Shown here in pieces: positions 3,321 to 58,146 of a stretch of 64,000 nt of DNA. How positions within the stretch are numbered: the first letter of the stretch is position 1; each line of letters begins with the position of its first letter. Source of the stretch: a virus. Lineage: Duplodnaviria > Caudoviricetes. The notes under the pieces were generated by a model. That model was given only the letters and a program-made list of their open reading frames with translations. It had not been told where the DNA came from and did no database searches. Both the position numbers and the translations under genes were made by a program. The stretch is from IMG/VR virus record IMGVR_UViG_3300030330_005139; one strand, 5' to 3'.

Positions 3321-4172
3321 ATGACACTCGAAATCAACAAAACCCATTTGATGTCTAACATTGATGGATGTGAACAGATGGACCCAGAGTCTGTCAATCT
3401 GGTCGTCACTTCTCCACCTTATGATAACCTGAGAGAGTACAATGACTCCTCCACCTGGAACTTTGATGTGTTCAAGCAGGTTGCTGATGGACTCATTCGT
3501 GTTCTGAAACCAGGTGGTGTCATTGCATGGAATGTTGCTGATGCCATCGTTGAACTTCACAAGAAGCAAGGAACTTCAAGGACTGGTTCTTCGTTTCGTC
3601 AGTGTCTTTACTTCCAAGAACAGGGACTGAACTTCCATGACCTGATCATTTACGAGAAACCAGCTGCTCGTTTCTCTGCTTCTGCCACTGGTCTTCGTTA
3701 CTCTGATGTGTTTGAGTATGTCTTCATCATGACGAAGGGGAAACCAGACCACATGCAAGTGATTGCGGATAAGAAGAACAAAGGGTTTGGAACAACCTTC
3801 ACCAAAGATGGTGGAAGAAACAAGGATGGAACCCGTAATCGTGATGCTGAGAAGACACAGATTGCTGTGAAGGAGTTTGGTGTTCGTCACAACATCTGGA
3901 GGATCAACAACTCATGTGGAGCTCACGGGATGCCTAAGGAGGCTTACGAACACCCAGCTCTGATGCCACAGGAACTGGCAGATGACCTGATCCGTTCTTA
4001 CTCTCGTGAAGGTGACCTGGTGTTGGATCCGTTCATGGGTTCCGGAACAACAGCAAGAATGGCTTTCAAGAACAATCGTGATTACATTGGGTTTGAGATT
4101 GACCCCACTTACCATGAGTTGTGTGTCAATCTCAACGCTTCGGAATGTAACTCCGTGTTTGACAAACTCTAA
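3321..4172 (+). CDS. DNA N4-cytosine/N6-adenine methyltransferase (beta class)
   Basis: N-terminal VTSPPY, HPA..P and C-terminal VLDPFMGSGTT. Confidence 0.9.
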   Translation: MTLEINKTHLMSNIDGCEQMDPESVNLVVTSPPYDNLREYNDSSTWNFDVFKQVADGLIRVLKPGGVIAWNVADAIVELHKKQGTSRTGSSFRQCLYFQEQGLNFHDLIIYEKPAARFSASATGLRYSDVFEYVFIMTKGKPDHMQVIADKKNKGFGTTFTKDGGRNKDGTRNRDAEKTQIAVKEFGVRHNIWRINNSCGAHGMPKEAYEHPALMPQELADDLIRSYSREGDLVLDPFMGSGTTARMAFKNNRDYIGFEIDPTYHELCVNLNASECNSVFDKL

Positions 4173-4187
4173 AACATCTGTTAGTAT
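4159..4187 (+). promoter_or_regulatory. sigma70-type early promoter for the sigma factor gene
   Basis: TTGACA (4159-4164), 17 bp spacer, TGn-TAGTAT (4182-4187). Confidence 0.7.
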
Positions 4188-4209
4188 AAAACTCCATTAC
4201 ACATCACCC

Positions 4210-4911
4210 ATGCAATTCGCCAAACAAATTGACCACGTCGAAGAGATCGAACTTTGTAAGAAGGCACAACAAGGAGGCGATGATGGCGAGAGGGCTAAGA
4301 GTATAGTGGTCAATGCCAATCTTGGTTTGGTTGCTCACATTGCAAAGAAGAACTATTACAAGAACGATCAATATTCCTTTGACGATCTCTTTCAGGAGGG
4401 AGTATTTGGTCTTGTTCGAGCAATCGAAAAGTTCGATCCAACAGAGGGTTGTCGGTTCTCAACTTATTCTTATTACTGGATCTATGCTTTTATCAGCAGG
4501 TTCAAGAATAACAACAGGGGAAGCATCCGTCTTCCTCTTCATGTCACTGACAAGATGAGGACTCTTGAGAAGAAGGACAAGGTTGCCTTTGAGGAATACA
4601 AGTCCAAGATTCCTGTGGCAGTCTCTCTGAATAAGATGATTAGTGACTCCACTTCTATCTTGGACTTGGTTTCTGATGAAGATGAGACAAATATTCTTGA
4701 TCGAATTGACAATGAACTTCTGATGGAACAGATCAAAGAACTTCTTTCTGAGAAAGAGTTTGATGTTCTTTGTAATCGTTATGGTCTTGAGGGACGAGAA
4801 CAGAAGACTCATCGTGAATGTGCCAAGATTTATGGAGTCTCTCACACAGCAGTTTATCTGATTGAGAAGAAGGCTTTTGAGAAAATTAGGAAAACATTTG
4901 CCACTAAATAA
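4210..4911 (+). CDS. RNA polymerase sigma70-family factor (RpoD/RpoS-like, not gp55)
   Basis: Region 2 NLGLVAHIAKK..DDLFQEGVFGLVRAIEKFDP..RFSTYSYYWI, SIRLP, and region 4 HTH. Start placed at ATG 4210, downstream of the promoter. Confidence 0.9.
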   Translation: MQFAKQIDHVEEIELCKKAQQGGDDGERAKSIVVNANLGLVAHIAKKNYYKNDQYSFDDLFQEGVFGLVRAIEKFDPTEGCRFSTYSYYWIYAFISRFKNNNRGSIRLPLHVTDKMRTLEKKDKVAFEEYKSKIPVAVSLNKMISDSTSILDLVSDEDETNILDRIDNELLMEQIKELLSEKEFDVLCNRYGLEGREQKTHRECAKIYGVSHTAVYLIEKKAFEKIRKTFATK

Positions 4912-4938
4912 TAAAAACACTGAGTGTAAGTGTAGAAA

Positions 4939-6183
4939 GTGATGAAAAGTTTTCTGAATTTCTTCTCCGAAGCAAGGGTCACCCGTGCTGCTCAAGAAGC
5001 GAAGAGGAAGGGTCTGACTTATCAGGATGGTTATTGGGTAGACAGATCTGGTAAGAGGGTCGCAAGAACAGAGAATGGGGAGCTCAAGATTCTCTCAGCG
5101 AGAGAGGCTGCACAGGAGGAGGAACCCACCCAAGAGAGAAAACCAGAATCTGAAGGTGAGGTTCAACAGCAGCGTCCTGGTGGAGAGGTTGAGCAACCCA
5201 AAGAGAAGAGAAAGGGGAAAGATATGACCATTGTGTTTGGGAGATTTAACCCTCCCACAATTGGACACAAGTTGGTTCTTGATAAGGCTTCATCTCTCCC
5301 TGGAGACTATGTGGTTTATCCTTCGAGATCGAATGATCCTCAGAAGAATCCTCTTGAACCCGCTGAGAAGACGGAAATCATGAAGAAGATGTTCCCTCAG
5401 CATTCTGACTCCATTGTCAATGATGAAAGCATCAGAACAATCTTTGATGCTCTTAAAGTTGCAGATGAAGAGGGTTACACAAATGTAAATATCGTTGTTG
5501 GTTCTGACAGGATCTCCGAGTTTGATTCATTGGCTCAGAAGTATAACGGAGAGATGTATAACTTCGAAGAGATCAACACGATCTCTGCTGGTGAAAGAGA
5601 TGAGGAAGAGGCTGGTGTTGGTGGAATGTCAGCATCTAAGATGAGAAAGGCTGCAGCTGAAGATGACTTTGAGTCTTTCAGGCAAGGAACTCCAGAAGAG
5701 ATGGAGGACAAAGATGTTAGGTCTTTGATGAATCTTCTGAGAAAGAGAATGAATGTTACAGAAGGTTGGAACTTGTGGGAGATTGCTCCTAAGTTTGATT
5801 GGAAAAACCTTCGTGAGAATTATGTAACTGGTAAGATTTTTAATCTGGATCAGATTGTGGAGAGTCTGAAGACAGGTTTGATTGGAAAGGTAATCAGAAG
5901 AGGAACTAATTATCTGATCTGTGTGACAGAAGAGGATGTTATGTTCAAGTCTTGGATTCGTGATCTTAAAGAGTACACTGAAGTCAAGATGGATCGTAAG
6001 ATGAGAACAAAGGATAAGCCAAACACTCTTGAGGGAACTGGTGGTTACTTTAAGAACGCAGCTGCAATTACTCCTGGGTTTGAAAATGGTGATAATACTA
6101 ACCTTCAACCAGGTGGTAAGCCTTACAAAGGTTATCAGAAGCAAACAGTCAAGGAATTCATAAATAAGTTTAGGAAAAAGTAA
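4939..6183 (+). CDS. Cytidylyltransferase/NMNAT-like HIGH-superfamily nucleotidyltransferase, probably packaged
   Basis: FGRFNPPTIGH (HxGH), VVGSDR and MSASKMR motifs. N-terminal MKSFLNFFSE. Late promoter CTAAATA upstream. Confidence 0.85.
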   Translation: MMKSFLNFFSEARVTRAAQEAKRKGLTYQDGYWVDRSGKRVARTENGELKILSAREAAQEEEPTQERKPESEGEVQQQRPGGEVEQPKEKRKGKDMTIVFGRFNPPTIGHKLVLDKASSLPGDYVVYPSRSNDPQKNPLEPAEKTEIMKKMFPQHSDSIVNDESIRTIFDALKVADEEGYTNVNIVVGSDRISEFDSLAQKYNGEMYNFEEINTISAGERDEEEAGVGGMSASKMRKAAAEDDFESFRQGTPEEMEDKDVRSLMNLLRKRMNVTEGWNLWEIAPKFDWKNLRENYVTGKIFNLDQIVESLKTGLIGKVIRRGTNYLICVTEEDVMFKSWIRDLKEYTEVKMDRKMRTKDKPNTLEGTGGYFKNAAAITPGFENGDNTNLQPGGKPYKGYQKQTVKEFINKFRKK

Positions 6184-52394: not shown

Positions 52395-53051
52395 ATGGCT
52401 ACCGCAGGCGGTTCAAATCCAAAGGCATCGAGTATCAGGACATCCGATCTCAGAACTCGCGTTGCAAATGTCGCAACAACAACCAATTATATTGTCAAAC
52501 TACAACCACCCCCGCTTGTCGCCGCTTACTTGAGAGATAAAGGGTTTAATTACACCAGTGATGATGGTTATAATGTTGAGTTATCCTGTAATGTGGCTCA
52601 ACTTCCTGGTTCCAGTTTCTCAACACATGAACAAAGGAATGATTATTCTGGTGTAACGGAGAGAATGGTTTATCGTAGAGAATATGATACCAATTTGTCT
52701 TTCACATTTATGGTGAATAATCAATATGATGCTGTTGAGATGTTTGATGGTTGGATGGACTTTATTGCTGGACAAGAAGACACCTCATCGTTCCTAAGTC
52801 CTTACGCTTCTTATCGGACTTCTTATGCGAACGATTATAGAACAAACATTCACATTACCAAGTTTGAGAAGAATGTTGATGCGAAATCACTAAAAGGTGA
52901 AAGACCAAGAGAATTGAGATACACCATGGTTGGTGCATATCCTATTTCAACACAACCAATGCAAGTTGGTTACGGGGACAAAAATAACATGTTACAATAC
53001 AGTGTTTACATGACCTTCATTCGTTATGTGAGAGAAAGAGTAGACGCATAA
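52395..53051 (+). CDS. Baseplate/tail-tube initiator (gp54/gp19-like)
   Basis: C..AQLPG, F..WMD.I, AYP; synteny. Confidence 0.75.
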   Translation: MATAGGSNPKASSIRTSDLRTRVANVATTTNYIVKLQPPPLVAAYLRDKGFNYTSDDGYNVELSCNVAQLPGSSFSTHEQRNDYSGVTERMVYRREYDTNLSFTFMVNNQYDAVEMFDGWMDFIAGQEDTSSFLSPYASYRTSYANDYRTNIHITKFEKNVDAKSLKGERPRELRYTMVGAYPISTQPMQVGYGDKNNMLQYSVYMTFIRYVRERVDA

Positions 53052-53093: not shown

Positions 53094-53810
53094 ATGCCTT
53101 TACCAAAAATTGCAACTCCAACTTATGAATTGGAACTGCCCTCAACAAAGAAGAAAATCAAATATCGTCCCTTTCTTGTAAAAGAAGAGAAACTCTTGGT
53201 TCTCGCAATGGAGAGTGAGGATACGAAACAGATTACAACAGCAATCAAGAACGTGCTGAAATCATGTATTTTGACCAGAGGTATTAAGGTTGAAGTTCTT
53301 CCAACATTCGACATTGAGTTTTTGTTTCTCAACATTCGTGCCAAGTCCGTTGGTGAGGTTGTTGAGTTGAAGTTGATTTGTCCTGATGATAGAATCACAG
53401 AAGTTGATGTTGAACTTGATATTGAAGAGATTCGTGTTCAGGAACAGGAGGGTCACAACAAAACAATCATTCTTGATGACAATCTGAGGATGGACATGAA
53501 GTACCCCTCTCTTGAACAATTCATCAAGAATAACTTTGATGTTGGAAATGTAGACATTGAGCAATCTTTTGAGTTGATCGGTTCTTGTGTGGATAAGATC
53601 TACAACGAAGATGAGGTTTGGGATACTGCTGATGTCTCGGCAAAAGAGGTCAAAGAGTTTCTTGAGCAGATGAATTCGAAGCAGTTCAAAGACATTGAGA
53701 AGTTCTTTGAGACGATGCCAAAACTCATTCACACAATCGAAGTTATTAATCCAAAAACTAAAGTTAAGAGTCCTATCGTGTTGGAGGGTTTAAACTCTTT
53801 TTTCGCGTAG
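53094..53810 (+). CDS. gp26: Baseplate hub assembly chaperone
   Basis: YRPFLVKEEK.L, FL.IRAKSVGE, MKYP. Confidence 0.9.
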   Translation: MPLPKIATPTYELELPSTKKKIKYRPFLVKEEKLLVLAMESEDTKQITTAIKNVLKSCILTRGIKVEVLPTFDIEFLFLNIRAKSVGEVVELKLICPDDRITEVDVELDIEEIRVQEQEGHNKTIILDDNLRMDMKYPSLEQFIKNNFDVGNVDIEQSFELIGSCVDKIYNEDEVWDTADVSAKEVKEFLEQMNSKQFKDIEKFFETMPKLIHTIEVINPKTKVKSPIVLEGLNSFFA

Positions 53811-53812
53811 GG

Positions 53813-53980
53813 ATGGTACACATGTCTCTTGAGGCTTATTTCAAACTGAATTTCGCCCTCATGCAGTACCATAAATACTCACTGACGGAGATTGAAAACA
53901 TGATTCCCTGGGAACGGGACATTTACGTTACACTCCTCCAGCAACATCTTGAAGAAGAGAAGAAACGGCAAATGGAGTAA
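53813..53980 (+). CDS. gp51: Baseplate hub assembly catalyst (55 aa; possibly made as a gp26 -1 fusion)
   Basis: YFKLNFALMQYHKYSLTEIENMIPWERDIY. Missing from the ORF track. Confidence 0.85.
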   Translation: MVHMSLEAYFKLNFALMQYHKYSLTEIENMIPWERDIYVTLLQQHLEEEKKRQME

Positions 53981-56146
53981 ATGGCAGATCCAAAGAAGTC
54001 AAACAAAATGTCCATCTCAGGTAACTCTGAATCGACTTCTGCTGCCAAGAAGAAAGGTATAAACTCAGTAAAAAGTAAGGCAACATCAACGGATATTGTG
54101 GATGTTGATGAGAATGTCGCAGAAGTAATTGGCATTCAAGACAACTTTGACCTATCATATGGGGAGTACAGAACTCTCCTAAAAGAAGCTGCTATCAGGG
54201 GAAGAGATGACAATTCACCAATTGATGGAGAAACAACAGAGAAGATCACACAAGAATACAGGAGAATAAAGGGAAAGGAAGGACAGATTAGACCTAAGGT
54301 AAAGAAGGTTTCCTTCCAAAAAGTATTCAATACAAAACCACCAAAGGTAGCTGGACTGATTGGTGGATCTTCTTCTCTTGCACTGAGATCACCAGATGCT
54401 CTGAAAGAAAAAGAAGAAAAAGAAGAAGACAAAAAAGAGATGATGATGGACAAGTATGTCTCATCATCTCTTACAAAGATAACAAAGAACATCTTTGACA
54501 TTGAGAAAGTTGTTGTTACTATCTTAGGGGACGAAAAGACAAAAGCAAAAAGAGATAATCAGGCAATCCGCGATGCAAAGAGGAAAGAAAAAGAAGAAGC
54601 AGGTGAGAAGGCAGTTGCGAAAAAATCTAAGAGTTTCTTGCAAGGCTTCAAGCCAAAGATTCCTTTCATGGATCAAATCAAGACGTACTTTGGAAACATC
54701 CTTGCTGGTGGAGCAGTCTTAGGATTGTTGAATTGGGTCAATGATCCTGAGAATCAAAAAAAGATTGATTCATTTACAACATTCTTACAGGATTCTGTTC
54801 CAGTAATTTTGGCTGGGTTTGCTGCCTTAATTGCTTTTGATCTTGGAATGAAACTTCTTGGATTTGTGAAGCTTTTTGTTCCTGTCCTAACAACACTTAT
54901 AGGGTTTATGATGAATCCTGCTGTGCTTCTTGCCCTTGCTGGGATTGGAGCTGCGATTCTAATTGATAAAGGTGTGGATATGGCCAGAGATGCACGAGAA
55001 GGTGCAGAGGCCCAAAAAGATCATGATGCACTCAATCAACAGCTGAGAGATGCAGGAATGACTCCAAGGGGGATGAACATCTCGTCAGACATTGGTGAAG
55101 GTGAAGATGGAAGAACACCAGCACAGGAAGCAATCTACCAAGAAGTTCAGAAAAGAAGAAAAATACTTCACAAATATAGTGAGGGTATGAGATCGGAGTT
55201 TGATGCTGTCGATCGTCTAAGACGAGAGCAAATCGAAGCAATTCAGGAAAAAGACTCGAAGTATACTATTAAGAATGTTTATGGTAATCGTGTTCTTACA
55301 GAGGAGGGAGAAGCAGAAGTAGAAAGAATCAAACAAGAAGCAGAAGAAAGGAAAAAGAAAATTCGAGAAGAGTTTGATAAGGAAGTTGCAACTCCTGGTA
55401 GTGTCATGAGGGGTGGTATTTCACTCACCGACCAAGTCATGGGAACTGGTGAGGTTACCACTGAGAGAATTGATGAGCGACTGAGCGCAGCGGAGAAAGC
55501 AAAAAAAGGAAGTAATACCAGAACAAGAGTTCCCGGTGTTGGGTCGATTGTCGCTGGAAGGAATTTCTTTGGTATTGCTGAAACGAAATACTACAATGTG
55601 AATGGAGAGCAAATTAAGAAAGAAGAATTCGATAAACTGGTTAAAGGTGTAAAGTCCAGGATAGAGGGTGGAGAAAAGATTACAATTCCATCAGTCACTC
55701 CACAACCAGGTGTTGGTCCTGGATCAGAGAAAGAAACCGCAGAAAAGGTTAAACCAAGAACTCTGACTGAAGCTGAATTTACTGAGGCAAGAAATAATGC
55801 TGACATCCTTGATGAATATAATGATGAAATTGGAAATTCAAGAAATTATGAAGAGTATTTGAAATCAAAGGGTCTCATCGTCCCTAGGGATGATAAAAAG
55901 ATGGGAGTGGATGCAGAAGAACTTCCAATTGCTCCAGTACAGAAGACACAACCAGCCCCAGATCCTCCTGGAGTAACTGATAAGGATGATGTGACTGTTA
56001 TGCCTGGACCAGAAGCTGGTCCCAACGCATCGACTGCTTCATCCCAACCAGCAGCTGATGTTGCCTTCTTCTCGTCTGAGGACACTGGTAATGATTCAAT
56101 TCTTGGTGTGAAGGGTCTCTATAATGTAACGGCGGTGGCAGCATGA
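53981..56146 (+). CDS. Baseplate hub / tape-measure-like protein (gp29-like)
   Basis: Long helical protein with hydrophobic segments, directly after gp26/gp51. Confidence 0.6.
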   Translation: MADPKKSNKMSISGNSESTSAAKKKGINSVKSKATSTDIVDVDENVAEVIGIQDNFDLSYGEYRTLLKEAAIRGRDDNSPIDGETTEKITQEYRRIKGKEGQIRPKVKKVSFQKVFNTKPPKVAGLIGGSSSLALRSPDALKEKEEKEEDKKEMMMDKYVSSSLTKITKNIFDIEKVVVTILGDEKTKAKRDNQAIRDAKRKEKEEAGEKAVAKKSKSFLQGFKPKIPFMDQIKTYFGNILAGGAVLGLLNWVNDPENQKKIDSFTTFLQDSVPVILAGFAALIAFDLGMKLLGFVKLFVPVLTTLIGFMMNPAVLLALAGIGAAILIDKGVDMARDAREGAEAQKDHDALNQQLRDAGMTPRGMNISSDIGEGEDGRTPAQEAIYQEVQKRRKILHKYSEGMRSEFDAVDRLRREQIEAIQEKDSKYTIKNVYGNRVLTEEGEAEVERIKQEAEERKKKIREEFDKEVATPGSVMRGGISLTDQVMGTGEVTTERIDERLSAAEKAKKGSNTRTRVPGVGSIVAGRNFFGIAETKYYNVNGEQIKKEEFDKLVKGVKSRIEGGEKITIPSVTPQPGVGPGSEKETAEKVKPRTLTEAEFTEARNNADILDEYNDEIGNSRNYEEYLKSKGLIVPRDDKKMGVDAEELPIAPVQKTQPAPDPPGVTDKDDVTVMPGPEAGPNASTASSQPAADVAFFSSEDTGNDSILGVKGLYNVTAVAA

Positions 56147-58146
56147 TAGGAATGGTCCCTGGGAGTTTAGCTAAAGGTCTTCTTGGTGGAAGTGCCAAGA
56201 AGTCTTCGGTGCAGGGTGCAAGTCGAGCAATCGTCAGACAAACCAAACAAGACGGAGAAGAACGAGCGAAAGAGAAACCAAAGGCAATTCCTGTAAAGAG
56301 ATCATCTCGTTCATCAGGTGGGATGAGTCTGGCTAAATTCACAGGAACATCTAGACCTGAGGAGAAAGTTGAGAAGATTCAAGTCGAAGAAGAGGGAGAT
56401 GAAAAGGTTGCCTCTTCTTTGACATCTCTGGACAAAGCCACAAAGTCTCTCAAGGAGTCCATGGTGGCTCTTGTTACCTTTAGGAGAAAGCAGGATAAGG
56501 AAATAGAAAAAGAAGAGAGAACTGCAACGAGAGAAGCAAAAGAGAAAGGGTTTGAAATTGGAGTTCCTGGGTTCGTTCGCAAAGCCGTACAACCACTCAT
56601 CAATAGGACGATGGATTATCTCAAGAACATTCTGATTGGTGGAATCATTCTTGCCATTGTTCAGAATCTTGAGAAGATCATCGATTACATTAAAGAACTT
56701 TGGAATGAAACTCTTAAACCAATTTTTGAATGGATGAACAAATGGATCTTCCAACCAATATGGACTGGATTGAAGTGGATCGTGAATGAAGGAGTTCCAA
56801 TTGTTAAAGAAATCTTAGCGCATCCTATATCACAAACGGTAATTGATGGGATTAAGGCTGGTCTTGATAAGATCAGTGAAGTCTTTCCAATCTTTGAAAA
56901 TTTGGTCAAAACATTCACCAAGGGTGGCAACGGTCAAGGTGGAGGCAGTGGCACATATGATACGTCATCTGGGGGTCTTTTGGCTGGAGGTGGTGTTGAT
57001 ATGGGATCAGCTGCGAAGAAACAAATCTCTGAAGCGGGATTTGGTGAATCTGAATTCACCTTGTTTAGAGACGCAGTTGCACAAATTGAATCTGGTGGTG
57101 AATATGACATCCAGGGTGGATCTGGTGACATGTATGCTGGTAGATATCAGATGGGTGCAGCTGCAAGACAGGATGCCGCAAGATTCTTAGGTGAAGAATT
57201 CCAAGGAGACAGTGAAGCAGCAAGAAAGAGATTCAGAGAAGATCCTGCAATGCAGGAGAGATACTTCGCTGCTTACACCAGAGCCAATCATCAGACTCTG
57301 ATGAGGAACAAGACTTATGCGGCAATGAGTAATGAGCAGAAACTCCAAGTTCTTGGTTATGCCCATAACGCTGGAGCTGGGAATGCATTGAAGTGGATGC
57401 AACAGAACATGAGAGGAAGTTTTGAGGATGGGTTTGGTACAAAGTCCTCAAAGTATGCAGACGCCATAAGAAGAGCTCAAGAACAAAGAAGACAACCACT
57501 GCCACCATCCATGAGATCAAGGGGTACAACACCTGTTGCTGGAGAGAGTATTGTGTCAAGTGACATTAAGGATTTTAGAAAGTTTAGAACCTCAATGGGT
57601 GGAAGTGCCACAAGACAACCAACTGCTAACCCTGATTATTATCAGATCAGAGAAATGGGTGTTTATGGAAGTGGTAATTATAATATTAGTCCTTTGGCTG
57701 ATGACACCAATTATGAGATTGGACTACACAAAGGTGCAGGACACCATGAGAACAGAGCCTTTGACATTCCAGTCCCTCCCAATTCTGCACAGGGTGACAG
57801 AGTTGCAAAGTTCTGGAGAGATCGTGGATACACAGTGATTTGGAGATCAGCTGGTCACTATGATCACGTTCATGTGGAAGTTCCGAAAGCGAGAGCTGAA
57901 GAGTTCTTCAAAGTGATTCCAGAACTTCAAAAACCAGTTCCTCCAAGTGACAGAGCGAAGAATGTTTCAACCGAACCCTCTTACAGTAAAACTAAAAATA
58001 CTGTTGTGGTTGCATCCAACCCTCCAGCAACACCAGTTGTTATTAATGGGGGTGGTTCAGGTCTTCCCGCCTCTGGCGGTTCTGACAAAAAGGCGTTAAA
58101 TAGTCTTATGAGACAAAGAGCAAATAGTCAACTCTATTCCGCATAA
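56143..58146 (+). CDS. Tail-associated protein with lysozyme-like and Zn-peptidase-like domains
   Basis: AQIESGG.Y..AGRYQ (muramidase-like) and H..NRAFD..GHYDHVHV (M15-like). Confidence 0.7.
   Translation: MIGMVPGSLAKGLLGGSAKKSSVQGASRAIVRQTKQDGEERAKEKPKAIPVKRSSRSSGGMSLAKFTGTSRPEEKVEKIQVEEEGDEKVASSLTSLDKATKSLKESMVALVTFRRKQDKEIEKEERTATREAKEKGFEIGVPGFVRKAVQPLINRTMDYLKNILIGGIILAIVQNLEKIIDYIKELWNETLKPIFEWMNKWIFQPIWTGLKWIVNEGVPIVKEILAHPISQTVIDGIKAGLDKISEVFPIFENLVKTFTKGGNGQGGGSGTYDTSSGGLLAGGGVDMGSAAKKQISEAGFGESEFTLFRDAVAQIESGGEYDIQGGSGDMYAGRYQMGAAARQDAARFLGEEFQGDSEAARKRFREDPAMQERYFAAYTRANHQTLMRNKTYAAMSNEQKLQVLGYAHNAGAGNALKWMQQNMRGSFEDGFGTKSSKYADAIRRAQEQRRQPLPPSMRSRGTTPVAGESIVSSDIKDFRKFRTSMGGSATRQPTANPDYYQIREMGVYGSGNYNISPLADDTNYEIGLHKGAGHHENRAFDIPVPPNSAQGDRVAKFWRDRGYTVIWRSAGHYDHVHVEVPKARAEEFFKVIPELQKPVPPSDRAKNVSTEPSYSKTKNTVVVASNPPATPVVINGGGSGLPASGGSDKKALNSLMRQRANSQLYSA

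Follow-up and report, generated by a model that had tools for sequence, protein, structure and literature searches.

A conserved T run at the 3′ end of gene 26 that very probably joins gp26 to a small gp51 reading frame in cyanophages and other T4-like phages

Organisation of the gene 26/51 locus

The window analysed here is a 64,000-nucleotide stretch from a virus of the Caudoviricetes (IMG/VR record IMGVR_UViG_3300030330_005139), and those of its features that are described below lie on the + strand. Gene 26 (53094..53810) encodes a protein of 238 aa, ends with a TAG at 53808-53810 and matches both PF12322 T4_baseplate (3.5e-71; 239.8 bits against a curated cut-off of 24.5) and phrog_150 (1.3e-77). 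It is followed by a 55-aa ORF annotated as 'gp51' (53813..53980), which matches phrog_634 'baseplate hub assembly catalyst' at 3.8e-27. The pair adjoins a tail-tube-like ORF upstream (52395..53051; PF23849 Phage_TTP_2, 3.4e-11; phrog_45) and a 721-aa candidate tape measure ORF downstream (53981..56146), beyond which lies a 667-aa ORF (56143..58146; phrog_5867, 5.9e-36). The layout is that of a single PF12322 gene with a 55-aa ORF in its −1 frame, and not that of the two full-length genes found in T4. On the phrog_150 profile gp26 covers positions 5-232 and the 55-aa ORF covers the last 40 (242-281), and since both match the same profile some members of this family must hold the two parts in one chain.

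The 3′ end of gene 26 reads gag ggt tta aac tct ttt ttc gcg TAG. As the first-pass annotation of this DNA had pointed out, it contains three in-phase heptamers of the form X XXY YYZ, namely G GGT TTA (53786-53792), T TTA AAC (53789-53795) and T TTT TTC (53798-53804), and a Shine-Dalgarno-like (SD-like) GGAGG at 53783-53787, 10 nt 5′ of the last heptamer. Following a TAA at 53765-53767, the −1 frame of gene 26 stays open from 53768, a point 40 nt short of the gp26 stop, as far as a TAA at 53978-53980; this is the frame of gp51, again as first described. A shift at T TTT TTC would append to 237 residues of gp26 the 58 residues of a C-terminal extension (53804..53980, TAA included) that contains the annotated gp51 ORF. 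The computed trans-frame translation is 295 aa long with the junction ...NSFF|RVGMVH..., the predicted tryptic junction peptide of this long form being SPIVLEGLNSFFR and the predicted C-terminal peptide of the short form SPIVLEGLNSFFA.

To estimate how often such heptamers arise by chance, we counted in-phase X XXY YYZ heptamers in the window's 52 ORFs that are 150 aa or longer; the frequency is 0.27 per 100 codons, and within the last 15 codons it is 0.115 per ORF. Given this background, three heptamers in the last 8 codons of gene 26 are far above expectation, although two of the three overlap (53786..53795) and both derive from one Gly-Leu-Asn stretch. An in-phase T TTT TTN occurs only once among the 52 ORFs, at the end of gene 26.

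Conservation of the shift site

We assembled a set of close relatives comprising 80 IMG/VR loci, with gp26 68-78% identical, and Synechococcus virus S-PRM1. Two of the IMG/VR loci stop before gp51, and 80 loci, the window included, were usable. In every one of these 80 cyanophage-type loci TTTTTTC lies exactly 10 nt 5′ of the gp26 stop and gp51 is in the −1 frame, which answers the first-pass annotation's question whether heptamer and phase are kept across cyanophages. Synonymous sites are frozen at T TTT TTC. In all 78 distinct gp26 ORFs of the set the site codons are either TCT TTT TTC (42) or AGT TTT TTC (36), so that synonymous breakage of the heptamer, raised earlier as a possible counter-observation, is seen in none of them. 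The serine codon of the site has thus been swapped between two codon families yet always ends in T, whereas elsewhere in these ORFs serine codons end in T in just 61% of cases and phenylalanine is encoded by TTT (69%) or TTC (31%).

The two other heptamers behave differently. G GGT TTA, or its G-ending form, is present in about one fifth of the close relatives and T TTA AAC in the window only; both are probably incidental, and the idea of a 'stacked' signal did not survive this comparison. Judged by its conservation, T TTT TTC is the only one of the three heptamers that matters.

A tblastn search placed relatives of gp26 in 715 phage records. We inspected six distant isolates (Pelagibacter phage Mosig, Caulobacter phage Cr30, Stenotrophomonas phage Mendera, Aeromonas phage Aeh1, Sinorhizobium phage phiM9 and Vibrio phage ValKK3), all six of which have an in-phase T TTT TT(C/T/G) and a gp51 domain in the −1 frame. 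A further 67 IMG/VR loci, in most of which gp26 shares only 23-30% identity with its query (a few of the loci belong to the query phages or to close relatives of these), show the same site and the same −1 phase as the close relatives. Taken together, all these loci yield 125 distinct junctions, drawn from cyanophages and from phages of Pelagibacter, Caulobacter, Stenotrophomonas, Aeromonas, Sinorhizobium and Vibrio, and all 125 combine an in-phase T TTT TTN with a gp51 domain in the −1 frame; the relative frame, whose variation had been considered a possible objection, is constant. The run is T6 in 90, T7 in 8 and T8 in 27 junctions, and the codon preceding the TTT of the heptamer always ends in T (TCT, AGT, GAT or AAT). 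Mixed heptamers such as G GGA AAG occur at none of the 125 junctions, every lineage having a pure T run. The extension measures 56-69 aa. From the start of the heptamer to the stop there are 10 nt in 92 junctions, 7 nt in 31 and 31 nt in 2.

Two variants deserve description. In Pelagibacter phage Mosig (2196-2232 of its locus) the zero frame continues for 8 sense codons past the heptamer, with the stop 31 nt from the heptamer start, a spacing that differs from nearly all other junctions and suggests that a close stop codon is not essential. In a large uncultured clade retrieved from IMG/VR with the phiM9 gp26 query (loci L096-L129), the site reads GAT TTT TTT TAA, a T8 run with the stop directly after the heptamer, and a −1-frame TGA usually adjoins the run on its 5′ side, so that the −1 ORF opens exactly at the run. 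In total, 26 junctions have a −1-frame stop immediately 5′ of the T run, and a shift would there be possible at the run only.

The small gp51 frame compared with T4 gp51

In T4 (NC_000866) genes 26 and 51 are divergent and lie on opposite strands (gp26 at 3803-4429 of the locus on the − strand, gp51 at 4480-5229 on the + strand). T4 gp51 (249 aa) consists of a PF12322 domain at residues 1-201 (3.9e-52) followed by a C-terminal extension, and T4 gp26 consists of PF12322 only (residues 1-206) and ends three residues past a shared ...RGLKEFF motif. The two T4 proteins are paralogues, both with full PF12322 domains. By BLASTP the 55-aa ORF of the window is homologous to residues 211-246 of T4 gp51, and scripted trans-frame fusions align with T4 gp51 from end to end in a colinear manner. 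From this colinearity it follows that the cyanophage 'gp51' would be only the tail of the real gp51 counterpart, and, if so, that the long form must come from a shift.

A natural control is provided by seven Straboviridae in which genes 26 and 51 are separate: T4, Mosigvirus, Dhakavirus, Lazarusvirus, an RB49-type Krischvirus, Acj9 and Aeromonas phage AS4. With the two genes separate and divergent, the T6 run is absent from all seven. Six of them retain the Phe-rich C-terminal motif (KEFF or a variant), encoded as TTC TTT, TTT GTT, TTC CTT or TTT ATT, and in AS4 the motif is gone. Retention of the T run thus appears to be confined to phages that have the extension in the −1 frame; in T4 itself the Phe-Phe of gp26 is encoded as TTC TTT, and the slippery run has accordingly disappeared.

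We also asked how well the small ORF is equipped for translation of its own. For ATG 53813 we found no well-spaced Shine-Dalgarno sequence upstream in the window, in agreement with the first-pass annotation, and the weak AGGGA 8 nt 5′ of the second in-frame ATG (53822) is not conserved. In about one third of the close-relative loci the ATG just past the gp26 stop has given way to CTG, CTA or a similar codon; the second ATG is absent in a few, and one close-relative locus (L065) has neither. Within the first 13 codons of the extension, an ATG is missing from 23 of the 124 complete junctions, and 11 contain neither ATG nor GTG nor TTG. One example is Aeh1 (NC_005260, about 2196-2380 of its locus), whose −1 frame matches phrog_634 at 3.5e-14 and carries an unannotated gp51-type extension without a start codon, which would therefore be expressed as a fusion only. 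In S-PRM1 (MH629685; 3711-3895 of its locus) a gp51-type extension is likewise unannotated.

Sequences flanking the T run

Over the 125 junctions the anti-SD duplex energy of nt −18 to −6 averages −6.9 kcal/mol, compared with −1.2 kcal/mol in the rest of the gene, and in 86% of loci the SD-like element falls within the top 10% for the gene concerned. Synonymous recodings of the same peptide, however, still average −5.6 kcal/mol, which indicates that most of this signal comes from the conserved Leu-Glu-Gly peptide, and the element consequently argues only weakly for a ribosomal shift.

Downstream, neither RNAalifold nor folding of the window found a strong conserved structure at the canonical spacing of 5-9 nt; RNAalifold on 53 junctions gave no consensus structure, and the 96 nt 3′ of the heptamer in the window fold no better than shuffles (z −0.17). 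The 60 nt downstream of the heptamer have a mean z of −1.02, compared with −0.01 for a 40-nt control segment. Two small, partly overlapping hairpins can be drawn in relatives (columns 18-31 and 28-50 of alignment A1; 53815..53847 in the window, where they are weak). The first has 5 bp, begins 10 nt past the heptamer and is paired in 82.6% of cells, with covariation in all five pairs (e.g. GTC/GAC, ATC/GAT, ACT/AGT, GTT/AAC) and an observed value reached by none of 500 shuffles. The second has 9 bp and 72.5% of cells paired, with 46 double-change cells; its +1 slide control reaches 63.9%. Since both hairpins were picked by eye from the same sequences that were used to score them, we treat them as leads only. 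They surround the internal ATG codons, their compensatory changes include synonymous sites, and relatives without the first hairpin tend toward a strong second one. The hairpins might stimulate a frameshift or occlude start codons.

A ribosomal −1 shift and its alternatives

The earlier proposal of a gp26-gp51 fusion of about 295 aa, made by a −1 shift in the manner of lambda G/GT, has very strong comparative support. It is backed by the invariant in-phase T TTT TTN and the fixed −1 phase, by the start codons missing in many relatives together with the colinearity with T4 gp51, and by the disappearance of the T run in phages with separate genes 26 and 51. From these comparisons of sequence we consider it very probable that the fusion is made. 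Granted that it is, a ribosomal origin seems probable to us and a transcriptional one rather unlikely, with a small share left for another route or for both together.

The reading that we favour, with some reserve, is that gp26 and the small gp51 ORF constitute one recoded gene expressed by a ribosomal −1 shift at T TTT TTC. Most ribosomes would end at the TAG at 53808 and release the short form of 238 aa. A minority would slip back into the −1 frame at T TTT TTC, where the two tRNA-Phe would re-pair from UUU UUC to UUU UUU, and would then read CGC GUA GGG AUG... as far as the TAA at 53978, giving the 295-aa long form (...NSFF-RVGMVH...). The upstream GGAGG may aid the shift, and the nearby stop codon or the small hairpins may perhaps contribute as well. 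The two products would be made at some ratio, perhaps a fixed one as first proposed, with the long form presumably in the minority. It is the long form that would truly correspond to T4 gp51, and the short form would correspond to T4 gp26. Such a shift is plausible since U_UU.U_UU.C belongs to H_HH.U_UU.Y, the most efficient class of −1 heptamers in E. coli, which is used by IS elements (PMC4066793).

It is hardly credible that no fusion is made at all, and that a free gp51 peptide of 52-55 aa is instead initiated at ATG 53813 or 53822 by termination-reinitiation after gp26, with the T run merely encoding a conserved Phe-Phe. Separate genes are indeed annotated in the GenBank records, an ATG lies near the start of the extension in 101 of the 125 junctions, and the window has both ATGs, the second with its AGGGA. 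Yet neither ATG position is kept among close relatives, the junctions devoid of an ATG or of any common start codon include those of Aeh1-type phages, T4 gp51 has the fused architecture, and Phe-Phe can be encoded without a T run, as the TTC TTT of T4-type gp26 shows. Very unlikely, too, is an additive signal to which each of the three heptamers (53786, 53789 and 53798) contributes. Their density is far above the background, they are all in phase and, the −1 frame being open from 53768, gp51 could be reached by a shift at any one of them; but the −1 frame is closed up to the T run in 26 other junctions, and of the two upstream heptamers G GGT TTA/G is present in about one fifth of the close relatives and T TTA AAC in the window only. 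Moreover, heptamers ending in AAC are of low efficiency in E. coli, where UUA also performs less well than UUY as an A-site codon (PMC4066793).

A more serious contender, though one we think unlikely, is slippage by RNA polymerase, which would add one U on the T6 run and so produce a subset of mRNAs with gp26 and gp51 in one frame; the protein made from these mRNAs would not differ in sequence from the product of a ribosomal −1 shift. That all lineages have a pure run of 6 to 8 T, and never a mixed heptamer, is also what polymerase slippage would require, and a convincing canonical downstream stimulator was not seen. Efficient bacterial slippage usually takes 8-9 or more identical bases, however, and the T6 run of the window falls short of this length, being flanked by non-T bases there as in the 90 T6 junctions. 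The run always starts at codon position 3 and so forms a perfect X XXY YYZ, for which a polymerase has no use, nor would it need the SD-like element that lies 10 nt 5′ of the site. Were a longer run favourable, hundreds of cyanophages would not be expected to keep T6C unchanged, an argument weakened in that the same C opens a conserved −1-frame Arg codon. On the other side, RNA polymerase is known to slip readily on UUUUUUU (PMC4066793), and the title of Vladimirov et al. 2022, as far as a title can tell, points away from translational frameshifting. We therefore keep as a tentative second reading that the long form arises by slippage on T6, or by both processes, with the small, mutually exclusive hairpins 10-20 nt downstream, which covary at synonymous sites, tuning the event or hiding internal start codons. 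If that were true, T4-like phages would possess a superfamily-wide programmed transcriptional recoding event on an unusually short homopolymer.

A chaperone-like fold in gp26 and the neighbouring genes

An AlphaFold2 model of gp26 from the window, built with 38 sequences, has a pLDDT of 85 and a pTM of 0.77. In an exhaustive VIA-align search of 48,161 chains with residues 1-91, 3FGX ranks first (Z 7.7), the HK97 tail assembly chaperone (TAC) 2OB9 scores Z 7.5 (85 residues aligned, rmsd 4.1) and B. subtilis YqbN (3KLU) is third at Z 7.2; these values are modest, all below 8, and the fourth match drops to Z 4.8. The top three include what we take to be an XkdN-type prophage TAC. It is unlikely that a named TAC and an XkdN-type TAC would stand among the three best matches to the model by chance. 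Foldseek with the gp26 model against the PDB gave nothing significant, and phmmer of gp26 against PDB sequences gave no match. On the model, the N-terminal domain of gp26 (residues 1-91) matches a TAC-like, HK97 fold. By analogy with lambda G/GT, gp26 and gp26-51 are probably the short and the long form of a chaperone. Under the ribosomal shift that we favour, the N-terminal domain shared by both forms would coat the tape measure or the hub assembly, and the additional C-terminal domain of the long form would link it to the growing tail.

The 721-aa ORF has no Pfam (E up to 10) or NCBIfam match and no BLASTP similarity to T4 gp29; a weak, sub-threshold Atlas lead points to the PF25671 T4_Tape_measure cluster (score 0.80), and the S-SM2 homologue is annotated as a transmembrane protein. 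The 721-aa protein is rich in lysine and glutamate and has hydrophobic segments, and the 667-aa protein encoded 3′ of it has an endolysin-like, that is lysozyme/transglycosylase-like, region. The stretch 53981-58146 thus looks like a candidate tape measure gene followed by one for a cell-wall-degrading hub protein.

Discussion

The shift site, its phase and the colinearity with T4 gp51 are evident from comparative sequence analysis, and the TAC-like fold from the model built on it. The feature is real and important for annotation, and it has already been published: the gp26/gp51 arrangement in T4-like phages was described by Vladimirov, Gautam and Davidson (Virology 2022), as relayed in PMC10885494 and PMC12846349, the second of which (2025) cites that work in treating poly-T as a known −1 signal in the TAC-N genes of T4-like phages. 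Given this earlier publication, the finding in the window is a rediscovery. Direct literature searches for a gp26/gp51 frameshift returned only unrelated phages with the same gene numbers. The first-pass remark that such a shift is not the textbook picture for T4-like phages is true of T4 itself but overlooks that the arrangement had been in print since 2022.

For annotation, the consequence is the correction of a widespread error, the listing of 'baseplate hub assembly catalyst gp51' as a free protein of 50-60 aa; in the Aeh1 and S-PRM1 records the gp51-type extension was missed outright. The real counterpart of T4 gp51 in cyanophages and many T4-like phages would be the trans-frame product of about 295 aa. 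T4-like myoviruses would thereby join the general rule for long-tailed phages, in which a short and a long tail assembly chaperone are made from one N-terminus. T4, in turn, would be the derived exception, its two forms split into paralogous genes and the slippery run lost.

Among known systems, lambda G/GT is the obvious comparison; both it and a conserved −1 frameshift in tail assembly genes were reportedly described by Levin and colleagues in 1993 and by Xu, Hendrix and Duda in 2004. As in lambda, both products would share their N-terminus, the second ORF occupies the −1 frame, and the short overlap contains a slippery heptamer. The pair likewise follows genes of tail tube type and precedes a long gene that is a candidate for the tape measure, and the modelled N-terminal domain of gp26 is TAC-like. 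The differences are that the heptamer is T TTT TTC here and G GGA AAG in lambda, and that T TTT TTC is invariant over the whole superfamily, whereas the heptamers of lambda-type pairs vary between phages. The short form is also larger here, 238 aa with a second domain, and the extension is short at 56-69 aa.

The −1 frameshift in E. coli dnaX uses an SD-like element 10 nt upstream, a heptamer and a downstream hairpin. The window resembles it in having a heptamer of an efficient class with an SD-like GGAGG at the same 10-nt spacing, and differs from it in lacking a strong hairpin 5-6 nt downstream, the small, partly conserved ones in relatives lying 10 and 20 nt downstream; the shift would also extend the protein here, whereas in dnaX it truncates it. 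T4 has two separate, divergently transcribed genes and no T run, in contrast to the recoded pair of the window. Programmed transcriptional slippage shares with this locus a homopolymer at the junction of two frames and the same predicted protein. The T6 of the window, and the 6-8 of the family, are shorter than the characterised bacterial cases, which reportedly include A9 in Thermus dnaX, T9 in Shigella mxiE and sites in IS elements (Baranov et al. 2005). Closest of all is the system of Vladimirov et al. 2022 which, as summarised in the later papers, shares with ours the PF12322 family, the pairing of a short and a long form and a poly-T run at the end of the short gene; to the extent that it is described there, we see no substantive difference, and the window is another member.
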